DNA from: a virus
Taxonomy: Duplodnaviria > Caudoviricetes
Length of the DNA: 55,347 nucleotides
Direction: 5' to 3' (one strand)
IMG/VR virus record: IMGVR_UViG_3300017988_000845
Location: 1 to 55,347 of that record
Shown here: positions 29,425-35,572 of the stretch, piece after piece
How positions within the stretch are numbered: position 1 is the stretch's first letter
How the letters are laid out: each line of letters opens with the position of its first letter
The notes under the pieces: model-generated
Database searches by the model: none
Told to the model about the DNA's origin: nothing
The model's input: only the letters and a program-made list of their open reading frames with translations
Position numbers and translations under genes: made by a program

Positions 29425-30441
29425 CTAAAGTGTGTTGAACACAGGACCCTCGACCTTGCTCTTAGCCATCTGCAGCAATTTTGTCTTCATCTTGGTGAAT
29501 TGCCCGATAAGCCCAGAGAATGGCCCGGATGCTGGGTACTTGAACTGCTGCCCGAGACCATCAACCAGCGTCTGTACGCCCTCGGCACCCAGATTAATTG
29601 TACCCTGAACCGCCGACAACGCCATGATCGCCGCTTCGCAAAGCACGAGTTGCTGCATGAAGGCGAATCGCGATTGATAATCGAACGGGGTTAAGCCCGC
29701 CGTGTACTGATACCAAAGCGCACCTGGAACATTCTCAGCAAATCCCATGAAGGCCAATTGCATGGCGAACAATGGCAACATCTGAACATTCTGCGCAGGC
29801 ACCAGACGAATCAAGCCAAAGTCCTTATCCTCGACATACCATCCGGGGGGCACACGGAAAAAGACATTCAGCAAGGGATAGATATAAGCAATGTTCTTAA
29901 CCGCGGTAATACCCGCTGTCGCATTGTTCTGAGCCGCGCCGGATGTCACGCCATAAGCCAGACTCTGTACTGGACGATAGCGCAAAGTCTGCATCATCCA
30001 GCCTTCATCCTGAGCGCGACTGAACATGAAGTCATAGGCGCTGTCTTCCAGATCATAATCGTAACCCTGCTGCTGAAAGGCACTTGGCGTATTGACGTCC
30101 AGGCCAACCGCAGCGGTAATTGAGGGTGTCAGCGTCGGGGGCGAGGCTACCCACGTCTGGCACAACAGAATCGATGTCTCCTGCTCAACCGTATCCTCAG
30201 CCCATCGCAACCATTGGAGAATTGTTCCAGATGCGACAGGAATCGGCGGATTGCCATAATAGTTCAATGGCACCCCGACAAAATTCTGCAAATCCTGCGG
30301 CGTTAAGCCTGTTTTCGTTTGCGTAAAAACACCAGGCAACTGCGGATATCCGGAAACCACCGGAATGGCCCCAGACGTATCCCACAGCCATAACGCCTGG
30401 GTCGGAACCGGAGGAGCGTAACCTGAGCCGAAGACCGGCAT
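29425..30441 (-). CDS. Head-tail adaptor / neck protein
   Basis: AEDTVEQET.I, LRYRPV, YTAG, VDGL patterns; position after the capsid gene. Confidence 0.65.
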   Translation of the reverse strand: MPVFGSGYAPPVPTQALWLWDTSGAIPVVSGYPQLPGVFTQTKTGLTPQDLQNFVGVPLNYYGNPPIPVASGTILQWLRWAEDTVEQETSILLCQTWVASPPTLTPSITAAVGLDVNTPSAFQQQGYDYDLEDSAYDFMFSRAQDEGWMMQTLRYRPVQSLAYGVTSGAAQNNATAGITAVKNIAYIYPLLNVFFRVPPGWYVEDKDFGLIRLVPAQNVQMLPLFAMQLAFMGFAENVPGALWYQYTAGLTPFDYQSRFAFMQQLVLCEAAIMALSAVQGTINLGAEGVQTLVDGLGQQFKYPASGPFSGLIGQFTKMKTKLLQMAKSKVEGPVFNTL

Positions 30442-30447
30442 GATGAA

Positions 30448-30858
30448 TTACCCCTTAAGAGCGGCTTGGCGCCGGCGCCGTATTAATTCCGCTGCCGAAA
30501 CGGGATGCTCCGGAACTGGACGGGGGCTAGGCGAAGATTGAACAGAAATTGTTTCAGGTTCTATAGATTCCGGTTCTGGAATATCGATGACCTCTGGAGG
30601 GGGTTCTGAAGTCAAAACTTTCTGCTCAGGAACATTGGGCACTTCCGCAAAGGTTACCAACTGAACATCAAGCCGATCACGAAGAATCACCGCATCGTCA
30701 ACACTCAAATCACCAGATTCATACGTACCCGTGAGGCCCAGAATATTGTTCCCAGTAAAAGCGAACCTGACACCAAGATATTCTCCGCTTAACTGCTGGC
30801 GACGGCGCCAGAGATTATCGATCGGGCTTCCACGACGAATGCGCGCGATGAAATGCAT
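30448..30858 (-). CDS. Hypothetical late protein
   Basis: Start re-called at MHFIAR (GAGGT RBS) because ATG 30897 falls inside the -10 of the promoter motif. Confidence 0.55.
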   Translation of the reverse strand: MHFIARIRRGSPIDNLWRRRQQLSGEYLGVRFAFTGNNILGLTGTYESGDLSVDDAVILRDRLDVQLVTFAEVPNVPEQKVLTSEPPPEVIDIPEPESIEPETISVQSSPSPRPVPEHPVSAAELIRRRRQAALKG

Positions 30859-30895
30859 GGTTCTGTACCTACCTCGAGGACAGTCCTCATGCCCC

Positions 30896-30930
30896 ATGAT
30901 AAGAGGCGGTGATCCTACCGAGGATACCTA
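30896..30930 (-). promoter_or_regulatory. Putative late promoter TAGGTAT-N22-TATCAT (neck operon)
   Basis: Copy of the recurrent motif. Confidence 0.7.
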
Positions 30931-31175
30931 ACCGCCCGAAGCAAAATTCCCTTGGCCTCGGCGACTGCCTGCCCCGCCTTAACGACCGCGGAAGTTGTCG
31001 CCGCCAGAGCCTTTTCGGCCAGATGCATGTTGATAGCCCGTGCTTGCCGATCAGCCATGTCCTTGGTCGAATGCCCGCCGCCATCGCGGGGATGCCCCTG
31101 TGGAGTCATCTCAACGTTCCCGGCATGGTCGACGATACGGTACTTTTTGCCTCGCCGCGCGACATGTACAGGCAT
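30915..31175 (-). CDS. Small basic phage protein
   Basis: AAGGA RBS; MPVHVARRGKKYRIV...GGGHST...A.RQARAIN pattern seen in head-module proteins. Confidence 0.6.
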   Translation of the reverse strand: MPVHVARRGKKYRIVDHAGNVEMTPQGHPRDGGGHSTKDMADRQARAINMHLAEKALAATTSAVVKAGQAVAEAKGILLRAVRYPR

Positions 31176-31244
31176 GATCCAATCCTTCAATAGATTGGCC
31201 ATATATCATATATAGGATCAAGGAAGAAAATGAAACAGACGTCT

Positions 31245-31310
31245 TGACCAAAACCCGCCGCCCGCAAGCTCCGGCGTTCAGGCCGGAGATAGGGCGGCGG
31301 GTTTTGGTCA
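31245..31310. terminator. Long hairpin / probable terminator at the 3' end of the tRNA cluster
   Basis: 19-bp perfect arms TGACCAAAACCCGCCGCCC / GGGCGGCGGGTTTTGGTCA enclose a second hairpin CTCCGGC..GCCGGAG. Confidence 0.6.
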
Positions 31311-31315
31311 GCAAA

Positions 31316-31402
31316 TGGCGGAAGGCCGAGGACACGATCCCCTTACCTCGCGGTACGATCTCGCTTCGAACGAGCCCCGGTGTCCTGCCCGGTAGACCTT
31401 CC
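31316..31402 (-). tRNA. tRNA-Ser(CGA), 8/4 fold
   Basis: Acceptor GGAAGGTC/GGCCTTCC (8 bp), T-stem GGGG/CCTC (4 bp), loop TT-CGA-AG, long variable arm, G73, CCA. Confidence 0.85.
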
Positions 31403-31405
31403 AGG

Positions 31406-31494
31406 TGGCGGATGGCAGTGGTCCCGATCCACAAGCACTCTACATGCTCCAGCCGCTTAGCAGGCGGCGCTGGACCTTGTCCAGTTTACCATCC
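31406..31494 (-). tRNA. tRNA-Ser(GCT), 8/4 fold
   Basis: Acceptor GGATGGTA/TGCCATCC, T-stem GTGG/CCAC, anticodon arm GCCGC-CT-GCT-AA-GCGGC, long variable arm, GCCA end. Confidence 0.88.
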
Positions 31495-31497
31495 AAT

Positions 31498-31586
31498 TGG
31501 CGGAGAGCGGATGCACTCGAAGCTCAGGAACTTTCATCCCCCATCCCGCTTCAAACGGGCGCCGGTCCCTGCCCGGTTCACTCTCC
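31498..31586 (-). tRNA. tRNA-Ser(TGA), 8/4 fold
   Basis: Acceptor GGAGAGTG/CGCTCTCC, 4-bp T-stem with a bulge, CCCG-TT-TGA-AG-CGGG, long variable arm, GCCA end. Confidence 0.85.
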
Positions 31587-31588
31587 AA

Positions 31589-31676
31589 TGGCGGATGAAT
31601 GAGATCCCGACTCTCAAGCATTCACATGCTCCAATCGCTTTCTGAGCGATGCCGATCCCCGATCGGTTATTCATCC
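31589..31676 (-). tRNA. tRNA-Ser(AGA), 8/4 fold, atypical C33
   Basis: Acceptor GGATGAAT/ATTCATCC, T-stem GAGA/TCTC, ATCGC-TC-AGA-AA-GCGAT, long variable arm, GCCA end. Confidence 0.8.
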
Positions 31677-31680
31677 AGAA

Positions 31681-31755
31681 TGGTGCCGCCGATTGGTATC
31701 GTCCAATCTCTCGACCTCTTCAGGGTCGCGCTAATCAAGTCTCAGCTACAGCGGC
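31681..31755 (-). tRNA. tRNA-Phe(GAA), atypical T-loop
   Basis: GCCGCTG/CGGCGGC acceptor, CGACC-CT-GAA-GA-GGTCG, T-arm ATTGG-acgata-CCAAT, ACCA end. Confidence 0.8.
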
Positions 31756-31852
31756 AAAAATAGGGAAAACTCTCGGACTAACCAAGAGAAAATGGGGTCA
31801 GCATTTTTCCTTCTGAGGGAAAATGGTCTGCATTGCCTACACCGCCATGAAA

Positions 31853-31928
31853 TGGTGCCCAAGATCTCGAATCGAACGGACGACCTCACTCTTACAAGGA
31901 GTTTGCTCTACCACTGAGCTACAAGGGC
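31853..31928 (-). tRNA. tRNA-Thr(TGT), imperfect acceptor stem
   Basis: TAGCTCAGTGGTAGAGC D-arm, ACTC-CT-TGT-AA-GAGT, TTCGA T-loop, ACCA end; two T.T mismatches in the acceptor stem. Confidence 0.75.
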
Positions 31929-31933
31929 AGAAA

Positions 31934-31958
31934 TGGCGCCCGGGGAGAGGAATCAAAC
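31934..31958 (-). pseudogene. 3' fragment of a truncated tRNA
   Basis: GTTTGATTCCTCTCCCCGGGCGCCA (T-loop, acceptor 3' strand, CCA) abuts the inverted-repeat element. Confidence 0.6.
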
Positions 31959-32368
31959 GGGACTTATATAGATAACTCCCTTATTGGTCGGGATCAGCAT
32001 CGCCCTCGATGTCCGTGGCAAGCCCCAACAGCTTTTTGTGGTAGGTGTCCAACCGCTCAAAATGAGCCTGGATTGCTCCGGCAATTTCTTTCGAGTTTTT
32101 TACCGCAAGAAAATGTCCGACGATTTCTTGATCTTCGTCGCCTTACGCTTTCGCGCCTTCCCGGCCTTGGACTTCGGCTTCGGTCGGAACGACAGATTAG
32201 TTCACCTGCGGTGACTGGTTACCAAACGGCTGTCAACTGGAAAATTTATACCCCGAATCATGCAGATTCGCAAACAGGTTTGTCTAATCAACAAAATGCA
32301 TAGCGGCGCTTTAGTTTTCGGCGAACGACTAAACCTCCTTAATTTAGGGAGTTATCTATATAAGTCCC
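31959..32368. mobile_element. 410-bp non-autonomous MITE-like element with 22-bp terminal inverted repeats (possible IS1595-family remnant)
   Basis: GGGACTTATATAGATAACTCCC (31959-31980) and its exact reverse complement (32347-32368). No transposase and no target duplication seen. Confidence 0.7.
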
Positions 32369-32383
32369 AATTATTTGTCAAAT

Positions 32384-32423
32384 ACCAAAAACCCCCCTGA
32401 AGTTAATCAGGAGGGTTTTTGGT
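32384..32423 (-). terminator. Rho-independent terminator after the major capsid gene
   Basis: Hairpin ACCAAAAACCCtCCTGA-ttaact-TCAGGgGGGTTTTTGGT, 22 nt after the capsid stop. Confidence 0.75.
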
Positions 32424-32445
32424 TCTTTTAGCGAAAAATCACCAG

Positions 32446-34239
32446 TTATGTGGCATTCGCGTTCGCCTGCAACGGATAAAAGTTCGTATTATCGGGCACG
32501 TAGTTCTTCACGAGACCATTGAACTTGCTGATCTTAACTCGCACGGAACCAATCTCAGCAACCGCCCAAGGCATGTAGAGGTTGGCGGCGAATAATTCTA
32601 TCCGGGTCAATGGCAGCAAGAACCGGAAGTCCACGGCCTGGTCATTCTCGTCCAAGTCGAGCAGGAAGATGGTCTCACTGCCCGGGATGTAGGTGTTGTT
32701 GTCGACGAACGTAACCGCCGAAGCGCCACTGGCCGCGACCGTACCGATGTAACGATAAGCTGCCGCATTGGCCACGCCCGAGGACGCCGGCGCATAGCCC
32801 AGGCCCGACCGGTAGATACGGAAGGCCGCGGCATCAGCCGCCGTTGGTCCGGTGATGGACAACGAGTACGCGCCGCTGACCGCAGCAACACCAGAGATGG
32901 ACAGCGTGCTGCCCGATCCCGCGCCGCTCGCCAGGTAGGTCAAGTACGATTCGTTCATTGAACTGTCGCACGAGGCCACGGCGTAGGAGTAAACGCCCGA
33001 GGACGCCGCATAGGCCGCGGTCCACGCACTGCCACTGGCAACCGTCCCAGTGACCGCTGTGGCGGTAACGCTGGCCGGCGGGGTCGGGGCGGAAGTAGAA
33101 GCGGCATTGGCGCCATTGCCGTAAACAATGGTTTGGGCTGGTTTGTCGCGCGCGGTGATGTAGAAGTCGATCGGGAACTGAATCTCGCCGAAGCGGGTCC
33201 GGATACCCTGGAGATCGCCATCAACGATCACGCCATGAACACTCTCCATCGTCGGCGTCAGACGCGTAACGATGTTGTTCAACAGCGTAGTCACCAAGCT
33301 CTGCAAGGAACCGGCGCATACCGGGCTCATGAAGGCATGAGTGATACGACCGTACTGGCGATAGCTGGTGATCGACGCAGCCGCTTCATAGATCAGGTTG
33401 AACAGAGCCTGCGCGCTGCTCCAACCCTGAGCCGAGGCATAGGTGTTGTAGAATGATTGATAGTCAAAGATGTTGCCGCTCGGAATGACACCGGCAATGC
33501 CCTGGAACTGATTGGCAAACAGGGTCGGATTGCCCCAGTAGCAGCAATAGTTCACCGATTCAAGAACGGTCAGGGCAGCGTTGATATTTTCCTGCGCCGT
33601 CACATCGACGAAGCTATTCTGCGCAGCCAACGCGGTGGTGATTGCACGTCCATTCACCGCCAACTTCAGGGTGATGTTATTGAGCTGATAGACACCAGCC
33701 GATGTGGACAACGTGCCAGAAGCAACATTGCCAAAGCCCTGGAATGCGGTGCCCGGCAATCCGCCGCCGGTGTCGGAGGCATACGGCCAGTAATCGACGA
33801 CCTGAAACGCAGCGGACTTGTGAAGAGCCTGATACAGCGTGAAGCTGTTCGGCCGCACAGTGCCGCGGGCCATCTGGGTATCGAGAGACACATAACCGAG
33901 GGACTGACCTCCGGTAATCGACGCGAAAGTGGTCAATGTATTGACGTCAAGCTGTGCCTTGGAGATGGCGCCCTTGGCAAGCAGGTCTTCATTCGTTGGG
34001 AACCGTGCCCGACGCGTGTTCTGCCGGAACATCTTGGAAATGGCATTGGCCTTGGCTATGGCCGGCGCCGTGTCCCGCTGTACCTTCTCAACCAAATCGG
34101 GATTCATCCCCGCGAAGGACATATAAACATCCTTCAGGGGATCGTTCGGGTTGATGTGCCTGATCATCACGTCGAGGGCTTGGCCCATCGCCATGTCGAA
34201 CTGGGCTTTGCTGGTGATGAGGTTACCGCCGTCGGGCAT
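32446..34239 (-). CDS. Major capsid protein with Ser/Gly/Ala-rich insertion domain
   Basis: 597 aa after protease and scaffold, strong GC3 bias, own terminator. GGQSL..VSLD, E.INAAL.VL..V...YWGN..L..NQFQGI and LLPL.RI.L resemble SPO1-like capsid motifs. Confidence 0.85.
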   Translation of the reverse strand: MPDGGNLITSKAQFDMAMGQALDVMIRHINPNDPLKDVYMSFAGMNPDLVEKVQRDTAPAIAKANAISKMFRQNTRRARFPTNEDLLAKGAISKAQLDVNTLTTFASITGGQSLGYVSLDTQMARGTVRPNSFTLYQALHKSAAFQVVDYWPYASDTGGGLPGTAFQGFGNVASGTLSTSAGVYQLNNITLKLAVNGRAITTALAAQNSFVDVTAQENINAALTVLESVNYCCYWGNPTLFANQFQGIAGVIPSGNIFDYQSFYNTYASAQGWSSAQALFNLIYEAAASITSYRQYGRITHAFMSPVCAGSLQSLVTTLLNNIVTRLTPTMESVHGVIVDGDLQGIRTRFGEIQFPIDFYITARDKPAQTIVYGNGANAASTSAPTPPASVTATAVTGTVASGSAWTAAYAASSGVYSYAVASCDSSMNESYLTYLASGAGSGSTLSISGVAAVSGAYSLSITGPTAADAAAFRIYRSGLGYAPASSGVANAAAYRYIGTVAASGASAVTFVDNNTYIPGSETIFLLDLDENDQAVDFRFLLPLTRIELFAANLYMPWAVAEIGSVRVKISKFNGLVKNYVPDNTNFYPLQANANAT

Positions 34240-34264
34240 GATCCTGTTTCCCTCTCGTCAAATC

Positions 34265-35572
34265 TCAGGCCGCAGCCCGGCCGAAAAGCATCTGTACCGC
34301 CGTCGAGGACTTCGCGATGCGGTCCGTGACGATCTTCTTGTCGATCAACCCGGCCGCCGCGGCACCCGCCTTGGAAATGATGTCGAGCGCGGCAAGACGA
34401 TCGGCGTCGAGCAACTGTCCAGCGTCGCACAGTTCTTCGATCCGCTGCGGAGTCACCTGCGCGATGGTATCGCCGGCCACCGACTTGCTGATCTCGGGTA
34501 CGACACCGGTTCCACGGGACTGCCCCATGATGGTGGACATCATTCCCTGGACATCGGTCTTCAGCAAACCGAACCCACTGAGCGCGTCATCGATCTTCTT
34601 GCCCATGGCTTCGATCGCCTTGGCGGCGCTGTCATCCTGGTTTCCGGTCGCCGGATCCTGCTTGGCCGCCTGGTTGCCCTTGGCCGGCTTCTTGGCCTTG
34701 GACTTGGCGTCGCCCTCTTCCTCTTCCTCTTCGTCCTCTTCCTCTTCGTCCTCTTCCTCTTCCTGGACGACATTGATGTCGGCCTTGGCGGCGAGGGTCA
34801 GAATATCGGTCTCGAAGTGTGCCTTGGAAAGTTCCTTCGACAAACGGGCAATCGCAAGAGCCTTCCCAAGGAAGAGCGCGGCGCGCTTGTCCAATTCCTT
34901 TGCCGACTTGCGGCAGGCCTTCCGTTCTTCGGCGGTCTTCATGTCCTTCGCCTTGTCGCGGGTCTTCGCGGCCTTGGCGATAAGAACACGCGCCTTGGCG
35001 AGGAACGACTTGACCAAGAGCTTATTGGCGACCGGCGACTTGGAGATCAGGGTGCGCGCCTTGGCCGCATTGATCTCGACAACCTCCGATTCCTCTTCGT
35101 CCTCTTCCTCTTCGTCCTCTTCCTCTTCGTCGTCTTCTTCCTGTTCGGACTTGACCAATCCGGAAAGGATTGCGGCGACGGACTTGGAATGCTCGATCAA
35201 TGAGCCAATGGCCTCGGTCTGCGCCTTGGAGGCGGCGGCGACCGGTTCCATGATACGCGCCAGACTTTCCGCGGTCAGCGTTGTTCCATTCTGCGGGGCG
35301 GGCATCGAATAATCGCGCACCATGCGTTCGGCACCGCCGCCCGAGGAAGCTTCGGAAGGACCAGTCTTGATCTCTTCGCGCTGCGCGCCCTTGTTCATAT
35401 TGCCCTCCAACCAATGATCGCCGACGACTTCTCCCGGCTTCAGGCTCTGAGCGGCGGAAAGATCCGCAGCGGCCTTGATCAAATTGCCATCCTTGATGGA
35501 CGATTCGATCTCGTTCATCGGGGTATTCTGCAGGATGTGCAGGGCACTGAGGATCTCACTCATCTTGCTCAT
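34265..35572 (-). CDS. Scaffolding-like head protein
   Basis: Between protease and capsid; helical, Lys/Ala-rich, two poly-acidic tracts, many xKS/xKA sites. Confidence 0.7.
   Translation of the reverse strand: MSKMSEILSALHILQNTPMNEIESSIKDGNLIKAAADLSAAQSLKPGEVVGDHWLEGNMNKGAQREEIKTGPSEASSGGGAERMVRDYSMPAPQNGTTLTAESLARIMEPVAAASKAQTEAIGSLIEHSKSVAAILSGLVKSEQEEDDEEEEDEEEEDEEESEVVEINAAKARTLISKSPVANKLLVKSFLAKARVLIAKAAKTRDKAKDMKTAEERKACRKSAKELDKRAALFLGKALAIARLSKELSKAHFETDILTLAAKADINVVQEEEEDEEEEDEEEEEEGDAKSKAKKPAKGNQAAKQDPATGNQDDSAAKAIEAMGKKIDDALSGFGLLKTDVQGMMSTIMGQSRGTGVVPEISKSVAGDTIAQVTPQRIEELCDAGQLLDADRLAALDIISKAGAAAAGLIDKKIVTDRIAKSSTAVQMLFGRAAA
34714..34763. repeat. 15-bp-period coding repeat (poly E/D tract 2)
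   Basis: Repeats of cctcttcctcttcgt encode EEEEDEEEEDEEEEEE. Confidence 0.85.
35090..35141. repeat. 15-bp-period coding repeat (poly E/D tract 1)
   Basis: The same unit encodes EEDDEEEEDEEEEDEEE. Confidence 0.85.

Follow-up and report, generated by a model that had tools for sequence, protein, structure and literature searches.

Four tandem serine tRNA genes in an uncultured wetland phage

The DNA analysed here (the window, 55,347 bases) covers positions 1 to 55,347 of IMG/VR record IMGVR_UViG_3300017988_000845, the sequence of an uncultured wetland phage that is rated 41% complete. Downstream of the major head protein gene, its minus strand carries four consecutive serine tRNA genes between positions 31316 and 31676, as a preliminary description made from the letters of the sequence had stated. 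In the direction of transcription these are tRNA A (anticodon AGA; 31589-31676), tRNA B (TGA; 31498-31586), tRNA C (GCT; 31406-31494) and tRNA D (CGA; 31316-31402), each identified from sequence and fold and, in the case of D, also by ARAGORN. They are separated by spacers of 2, 3 and 3 nt (A-B, B-C and C-D, respectively). Six whole tRNA genes follow the major head gene, and the two besides A-D are a tRNA-Thr gene and an irregular tRNA-like gene with a GAA anticodon, described below.

An 8-bp acceptor stem, a long variable arm, a G discriminator (G73) and an encoded CCA end were found in all four genes, in sequence and in fold, in agreement with the preliminary description. The acceptor stem of A is made up entirely of Watson-Crick pairs, and those of B, C and D each contain one U.G wobble at pair 7. 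The variable stems of A, B, C and D comprise 6, 6, 6 and 4 bp, and the linker consists of two bases, AA in A-C and UA in D. The 4-bp T stem that had been ascribed to each gene is present with a 7-nt loop in A, C and D; the T arm of B is 16 nt long rather than 15, and can make four pairs only if one A of its 3′ strand is left bulged. As a bulge is found at the corresponding position in the TGA tRNA of Stenotrophomonas phage DLP_6, that of B looks like a shared trait and not like decay. The T loops are mostly non-canonical, as had been noticed, with U54 missing in three of the four (GUCGGGA in A, AUCGGGA in C and AUCGUGU in D; the loop of B, UUCGAGU, is canonical). U55 and C56 are retained in all four and every D loop contains GG, so the usual elbow contacts would be possible. 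The two genes able to form 6-bp D stems are A and C, each with a 3-nt loop; the D stems of B and D have 4 bp and loops of 7 and 8 nt.

The anticodon stem has five positions and the anticodon loop 7 nt in all four. A G.A mismatch lies at the top of the anticodon stem in B and D, and is regarded as a family trait since this first pair does not form in 31 of the 54 distinct sequences of the family described below. In A the anticodon loop is UCAGAAA, with C33 followed by A34, which corrects an earlier assignment of U33 at this position. Unconstrained minimum free energy (MFE) folding kept the 8-bp acceptor stem in all four sequences and returned the full 8/4 cloverleaf (8-bp acceptor stem, 4-bp T stem) for A and C. 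Fold z scores relative to shuffled sequences were -2.89, -0.63, -2.97 and -1.31 for A, B, C and D, respectively; by thermodynamics alone B and D are therefore unremarkable.

Covariation across a family of homologues supports the 8/4 register

A covariance model (R1) was built from tRNAs A-D. Homologues were obtained by blastn of cultured phages, by a scan of IMG/VR with a T-arm/3′-acceptor pattern (21 loci), and by applying this pattern to prokaryotes, with each species represented by a single genome (18 loci). At E<=1e-5, R1 gave 62 matches in the window and 25 further loci (58 of them outside A-D), and 52 matches in the 18 bacterial loci. In the R1 alignment of 54 distinct rows, 95.8% of the pairing cells were paired compared with 71.2% in shuffles, 25 of 27 pairs showed changes on both sides, and none of 500 shuffles reached any of five covariation measures. 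When the partners were slid by 1-3 columns, pairing fell to 40-49%. The eighth acceptor pair was GC in 29 rows, AU in 10, UA in 9 and CG in 6, and was unpaired in none.

As this alignment is fitted to an 8/4 model, the count was repeated alignment-free, from both sequence ends, on 100 distinct sequences from phages and bacteria. All eight acceptor pairs were present in 90 of them, the eighth pair in 97 (GC 41, UA 22, AU 20, CG 12, UG 2) and a 4-bp T stem in 97. That A-D are ordinary 7/5 serine tRNAs drawn in the wrong register is hardly credible: tRNA A, taken alone, can be drawn in the 7/5 form with U49 pairing to A65 in place of the U8-A65 pair, and the rival 49:65 pair is possible in 38 of the 100 family members, but it cannot form in B, C or D, position 8 is paired in 97 of 100 sequences, every Watson-Crick type being represented, and in each of the 54 rows of the model alignment, and the Rfam tRNA model RF00005, which expects a 7/5 fold, matched none of A-D at E<=10 while scoring canonical tRNA-Ser genes of a Rhodobacteraceae genome (G025) at 52-60 bits. 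The preliminary description had named a better-supported 7/5 fold as grounds for giving up its proposal; the family evidence favours 8/4 instead and settles the register, including that of A, which by itself allows either drawing.

The long D stem of A and C is likewise a family feature, and both forms of the D arm exist. A six-pair D stem with a 3-5-nt loop was found in 28 of 54 and 33 of 46 distinct sequences, and D-stem pairs 5 and 6 show all four Watson-Crick types across the family.

Assignment to the (8/4) tRNA-Ser class

By anatomy and family covariation, tRNAs A-D are of the 8/4 serine type, as had been proposed. The (8/4) tRNA-Ser class was described by Mukai et al. (2017, Nucleic Acids Res 45:2776, PMC5389517), the main text of which reports it from bacteria and from bacteriophage tRNA clusters, bearing out the statement that such tRNAs were already known from both. 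The marks of the class given there are a long variable arm and G73 or U73, with a tRNA-Sec-like D arm in the allo-tRNAs, and allo-tRNAs of the 8/4 and 9/3 types are reported to insert serine in Escherichia coli (PMC5389517; review PMC7609411). Building on the gene structures, family membership, covariation and distribution observed here, we assign a probability of about 0.7 to the reading that A-D are genes for serine isoacceptors of this class, itself a subgroup of the allo-tRNAs. The class has been in print since 2017, and A-D are a clean, slightly unusual example of it; what is unusual is the AGA/C33 variant, the bulged TGA member and the presence of only two other tRNA genes alongside.

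All four anticodons read serine codons, unlike those of missense or nonsense suppressor allo-tRNAs. Across the family, a serine anticodon (CGA, GCT, TGA, GGA or AGA) was read in 61 of 62 phage-locus matches, the exception being the weakest match (GTA), and in 52 of 52 bacterial-locus matches; none of the 113 family matches having the 8/4 fold carried a non-serine anticodon. That the anticodons stay with serine argues for selection on decoding.

tRNA A and the coverage of serine codons

The nearest relatives of tRNA A are GGA tRNAs of other phages, and A is therefore regarded as a GGA member in which G34 has changed to A and U33 to C. Among the 114 matches (62 from phage loci and 52 from bacterial loci), AGA occurs only in tRNA A. 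C33 was found elsewhere, in the TGA tRNA of a related phage, G003 (loop CCUGAAA; locus L006, 1595-1681, minus strand), and in near-identical GCT tRNAs (CCGCUAA) of three Myxococcales-type loci (L038, L040, L042). The 8/4 tRNA-Ser(TGA) of G003 also lacks the usual AA linker.

The suggestion that the four tRNAs could cover all serine codons holds for UCA, UCG, AGC and AGU, which are served by the TGA, CGA and GCT anticodons, and is plausible but less secure for UCC, which makes up 22.7% of the serine codons in the window. Judged by its anticodon, tRNA A can read UCU. UCC normally needs a GGA tRNA, and its reading here would hang on conversion of A34 to inosine, on loose wobble by an unmodified A34, or on a host GGA tRNA. 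Unmodified A34 reportedly reads C-ending codons in Salmonella.

In 54 greedy-picked open reading frames (ORFs) of the window, serine accounts for 7.8% of residues, making it the fourth commonest, and all six serine codons are used at 12-25% each. The idea of a serine-heavy virion proteome behind the array is partly upheld: several structural proteins contain 9-15.6% serine, but the head protein of the closest relative, which lacks 8/4 tRNAs (G001), is 8.9% serine compared with 9.0% in the window. The serine codons of the G001 head gene are almost only UCG, AGC and UCC, whereas that of the window also uses UCU, UCA and AGU, a contrast that could come from tRNA supply or from a lower G+C content (0.55 compared with 0.60).

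Four-member sets recur in phages and in bacterial chromosomes

A whole-record search with R1 was made of 23 records, each chosen for holding at least one match. Four matches were found in 8 records, three in 5, two in 2 and one in 8; the four IMG/VR records that are at least 90% complete held 4, 4, 4 and 3. All four anticodons were read in seven phage records (G008, G009, G016, G018, G019, G022 and DLP_6), and in each of these the set is GGA, TGA, CGA and GCT. The recurrence of four-member sets across phages, including unannotated genes of cultured phages, is one of the things that the present analysis adds; whether such sets had been drawn before cannot be judged from the main text of PMC5389517 alone, as its Figures S1-S3 may hold them.

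In cultured phages, homologues found by blastn share 74-79% identity over single genes, with tRNA C being approximately 78% identical to unannotated genes of DLP_6 and Acinetobacter phage AbTZA1. Four unannotated genes are present in Stenotrophomonas phage DLP_6 (KU682439), one of which overlaps the end of CDS AAY80_136. Caulobacter phage CcrRogue (NC_019408) contains an unannotated tandem of CGA, GGA and GCT genes in a 1.1-kb gap of its annotated tRNA cluster, and AbTZA1 (NC_049445) contains one unannotated gene and one labelled 'tRNA-Pseudo-TGA'. Two genes of CcrRogue annotated as tRNA-Lys (locus L009, 1812-1898 and 1904-1993) are 87 and 90 nt long, have a long variable arm and score 31-32 bits with R1; their Lys label deserves a check.

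The bacterial loci hold similar arrays. The tandem order GCT-TGA-GGA-CGA is found in four Rhodobacteraceae-type assemblies (L036, L043, L046, L048) and GCT-CGA-GGA-TGA in another locus (L035), and three-member arrays occur in alphaproteobacterial and Myxococcales-type assemblies. In the Rhodobacteraceae genome G025, the array (L048, 5995-6451) lies amid genes for a PLP enzyme, an MFS transporter and an enolase-superfamily protein, and the same genome has dispersed canonical tRNA-Ser genes with TGA, GCT, GGA and CGA anticodons (L050, L051, L057, L058) that score 52-60 bits with the general tRNA model; the dispersed TGA gene has an ordinary 7/5 fold. At least in this one genome, the 8/4 array therefore makes up a second, complete serine set, and two other Rhodobacteraceae with an array (G026, G027) keep at least a canonical TGA gene. 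The main text of PMC5389517 contains no statement on an 8/4 set beside a canonical set, which its Figures S1-S3 may show. A 336-aa ORF beside the Rhodobacteraceae array was considered and set aside as a chance ORF, having no Pfam match, an odd composition and no relative in the other loci.

The nearest neighbour of a family member carries the same anticodon at another locus in 59 of 100 cases and a different anticodon at the same locus in 17 of 100, indicating that the isoacceptor lineages are old. The nearest neighbours of tRNA D are CGA tRNAs of alphaproteobacterial assemblies and of CcrRogue. From these sequence relationships we infer that the set in the window is one case of an old GGA/TGA/CGA/GCT module that moves among unrelated phages and is also found in some bacterial chromosomes.

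Standard gene finders miss most members of the family

The warning that standard scanners can miss 8/4 tRNA-Ser was borne out. Within the array, ARAGORN reports only D and the Thr gene, that is one of A-D, and Rfam at gathering score reports only the Thr gene and none of A-D; the Rfam tRNA and tRNA-Sec models gave no match on A-D even at E<=10. In the bacterial arrays, ARAGORN found one gene of four in each of L035, L043, L046 and L048, one of three in L044 and none of three in L039. Owing to such misses, serine tRNAs stand unlabelled even in well-studied cultured phages (DLP_6, the CcrRogue group, AbTZA1), and surveys of phage tRNA repertoires and of their match to codon usage will count too few serine tRNAs.

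The surrounding locus

The long genes of the window lie mostly on the minus strand and include those for a prohead-protease-like protein, the major head protein (32446-34239, minus strand; phrog_752, E 3.4e-34), a virion protein and a tail sheath protein (phrog_279). Contrary to the preliminary description, the array does not directly follow the capsid gene: between the head gene stop at 32446 and tRNA A lie a terminator hairpin, 364 nt bounded on either side by an inverted repeat, the 3′ remnant of a tRNA gene, a tRNA-Thr gene and the GAA tRNA-like gene. The hairpin (32384-32423; inverted repeat I3) is followed by a T run and likely acts as a terminator, parting the head mRNA from the tRNA unit. 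At the other end, a perfect 19-bp hairpin that encloses a smaller hairpin and is accompanied by a T run (31245-31310; inverted repeat I2, 100% complementary) begins 5 nt past tRNA D, and its form makes it a likely two-way terminator closing the tRNA unit.

The first whole gene of the array is a canonical tRNA-Thr (TGT; 31853-31928, minus strand), found by ARAGORN and by Rfam (RF00005, 43.6 bits). The irregular tRNA-like gene with a GAA anticodon lies immediately upstream of A (31681-31755, minus strand; fold z -3.51) and was missed by ARAGORN and Rfam. It has A73, an encoded CCA and a 6-nt T loop, lacks GG in the D loop, and can be drawn as 7/5 or 6/6. In the spacer between the Thr and GAA genes (approximately 31770-31850, minus strand) there is a hairpin resembling an anticodon arm, with the loop CUCAGAA. 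It is similar to the anticodon arm of a tRNA with a short variable arm in the tRNA cluster of G003 (L006, approximately 1786-1862), and by this resemblance is probably another tRNA remnant.

A further tRNA fragment lies upstream of the Thr gene (31934-31958, minus strand), comprising 25 nt of a tRNA 3′ end (T loop, 3′ strands of the T stem and acceptor stem, G and CCA) cut exactly at one arm of an inverted repeat. This repeat is a perfect 23-nt inverted repeat (31959-31981, plus strand, and 32346-32368, minus strand) that flanks 364 nt and lies between the head-gene terminator and the array, with one arm abutting the tRNA 3′ remnant. The repeat arms may mark where a small inserted element ends, or they may bound a segment that can invert. 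The idea of a jumping element was not supportable, as the 22-nt core occurs only as the two arms in the window and has no exact copy in IMG/VR.

Four IMG/VR relatives were found through the head protein. The head gene and a downstream gene of 338 aa are syntenic in all four, and the intervening space holds differing inserts: the closest relative (L002, 5789-8243) carries, after the head gene, an insert of approximately 2.4 kb that contains an ORF of 561 aa, and another (L003) has one of approximately 0.56 kb in the same slot. ARAGORN found no tRNA within 4 kb of the head gene in any of the four. The records of the two relatives nearest to the window phage contain no R1 match at all: G001 (93% complete), whose head protein is 74-76% identical to that of the window, and G002 (100% complete). 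G003 does have two 8/4 tRNA-Ser genes, located elsewhere within an extensive cluster of tRNA genes. The window's head protein shares only 26-29% identity with its counterparts in cultured phages of Pseudomonas, Thermus, Yersinia and others, and the kinship of the tRNAs with alphaproteobacterial assemblies is too weak a basis for naming a host.

In four metatranscriptome runs, every contig covering the head gene stops within 32415-32425, at the base of the 32384-32423 hairpin, which is a weak hint that the head mRNA ends at this terminator. If it does, the tRNA unit would need its own promoter. The late-promoter-like motif of the preliminary description was not seen upstream of the array in the stretches read, which were not the subject of a dedicated search.

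Proposed function and points that weigh against it

By analogy with known tRNA genes and with the published allo-tRNA experiments, we infer the following course for the transcription, processing, serylation and ribosomal use of A-D. The array, lying between two hairpins that look like two-way terminators, probably forms a short transcription unit of its own. From its transcript, host RNase P and 3′ trimming would release the single tRNAs, which are separated by spacers of 2-4 nt and carry an encoded CCA. Host seryl-tRNA synthetase (SerRS) would then charge each of them with serine, recognising the long variable arm and G73 and not the anticodon. As the stack of 8+4 pairs keeps the 12-bp acceptor/T helix of a 7+5 tRNA, EF-Tu and the ribosome would be expected to accept the products. 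The four tRNAs would thereby form a near-complete serine decoding set of the phage's own, used in late protein synthesis and largely independent of the host pool. The serine content and the use of all six serine codons fit such a supply role.

Several observations count against A-D being working serine tRNAs of this class. No expression was seen, the contigs of the four runs having nothing on 30562-32414 (range examined 30400-34300), although these libraries were not aimed at small RNAs and their missing cover says nothing either way. No promoter was found between the terminators: a sigma-70 scan of 30800-32600 gave one weak minus-strand site (32286-32257), with 1.5 expected. As G001 and G002 have no such tRNA, the array is dispensable in this phage lineage. 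The T arm of B is weak, with only 2 bp in the MFE fold (z -0.63), and the z score of D is -1.31. T-loop position 58 is G, G and U in A, C and D, and is A in most of the family. C33 and A34 are both rare and A is the sole AGA member, so that A may be impaired. Finally, the homologues were fished with a T-arm/3′-acceptor pattern and an 8/4-fitted model, so T-loop frequencies (for example AUCGAGA in 30 of 54) and paired percentages lean towards 8/4; the co-resident genes at each locus were not chosen by the fishing pattern.

Alternative explanations

A possible, though unlikely, alternative is that the array is a backup set replacing host tRNA-Ser disabled during infection, whether by a host nuclease, by a toxin of a toxin-antitoxin system or by the phage itself, with the unusual 8/4 body, D arm and T loop making these tRNAs poor substrates for the attacker. 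This explanation overlaps with the supply role, the sole difference being the reason for which the set is retained. In its favour, the family moves around in complete sets of four anticodons and not as single helpers for rare codons; G025 holds the tandem 8/4 set together with a full canonical set, and G026 and G027 keep a canonical TGA gene. Serine tRNAs make up four of the six tRNAs of the window phage, and the relative with an equally serine-rich head protein and no array indicates that serine demand alone is insufficient. Some VapC toxins are reported to cleave tRNA-Ser with NGA anticodons within the anticodon (PMC10264068), and allo-tRNA genes are described near toxin-antitoxin systems in the main text of PMC5389517. 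Against this, the array has no link here to any nuclease, toxin or repair gene, and B, C and D have anticodon loops of the usual tRNA-Ser kind, so that an anticodon-loop nuclease would probably still cut them; resistance of an 8/4 body to any tRNase is hypothetical, as is an attack on tRNA-Ser in the host. Complete sets and their coexistence with a canonical set sit a little better with a backup role than with a top-up for rare codons. Bacterial Schlafen nucleases were considered as an attacker specific to type II tRNAs, but this idea found no support in PMC13056530, which reports that they cut within the anticodon arm of tRNAs for Lys, Met, Ala, Val, Phe and Ile and makes no mention of tRNA-Ser in its main text.

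A related idea, which we hold to be quite unlikely, is that the array is a self-contained second serine system, which phages, and some bacteria already in possession of a full canonical set, would keep and move as a unit because its body (the 8/4 branch, the Sec-like D arm and the A54-type T loop) is not subject to some process that affects ordinary tRNA-Ser. What is escaped could be a nuclease or toxin, or a regulatory or modification step. If this were true, the unusual shape would be the point of the system and not an accident of descent.

It is improbable that the array is a hitch-hiking and decaying cassette, that is, mobile cargo recently placed after the head gene that contributes little and in which A and B are becoming pseudogenes. 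The absence of the array from the closest relatives, whose flanks are syntenic and whose gap holds other inserts (L002, L003), would suit such cargo, as would the tRNA 3′ remnant and anticodon-arm-like remnant in the array, the adjoining 23-nt perfect inverted repeat, and an anticodon loop in A that is unique among the matches. However, the stems of A and C are all intact and the 8-bp acceptor stem, G73 and CCA are kept in four of four genes; the bulge of the B type is common to the DLP_6 TGA tRNA, and C33 also occurs in the G003 TGA tRNA and in the GCT tRNAs of L038, L040 and L042.

Returning to the reading of A-D as (8/4) tRNA-Ser isoacceptors, the recurring four-anticodon sets and the two sets of G025 raise the question of why a second, differently shaped serine system exists. 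The AGA/C33 and bulged TGA members are natural variants that bacterial translation may tolerate, and are relevant to the engineering of allo-tRNA scaffolds.

Comparison with known systems

Canonical class II tRNA-Ser differs from A-D in having a 7-bp acceptor stem, an unpaired position 8 and a 5-bp T stem. Bacterial tRNA-Sec (RF01852) shares with them the 8-bp acceptor stem, the long variable arm and the expected serylation by SerRS, and with A and C alone a 6-bp D stem with a small loop; it differs in its 5-bp T stem (8/5 branch) and UCA anticodon, A-D having 4-bp T stems and none of them UCA.

Phage tRNAs with a counter-defence role reportedly carry anticodon-loop changes or are specific Lys and Tyr tRNAs, whereas here it is the tRNA body that departs from the canonical form. 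The likeness lies in that A-D, too, could stand in for attacked host tRNAs, in keeping with the existing hypothesis of phage tRNAs as counter-defence (PMC10264068).

The genes of DLP_6, of CcrRogue and its relatives and of AbTZA1 have the same 8/4 fold, but these phages have genomes of 168-224 kb, many other tRNAs and capsid genes unrelated to that of the window. The bacterial arrays (loci L035-L048) have the same fold and, except for the AGA of the window, the same anticodons, with four genes within approximately 350-460 nt; they differ in being chromosomal and lying among metabolic genes, and in their gene order, that of the window being AGA-TGA-GCT-CGA.

Compared with the account of the (8/4) tRNA-Ser class by Mukai et al., the array of the window consists of four tandem isoacceptors, has one AGA/C33 member in place of the GGA member of the family and one bulged T stem, and has no (8/4) tRNA-His beside it within the available 55 kb. 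The long tRNA-Sec-like D stem of that account is found in two of the four genes (A and C) and is absent from B and D. A-D share with the class the 8+4 branch, the long variable arm, G73, serine anticodons and a place in a phage tRNA cluster, and they too are overlooked by standard gene finders.

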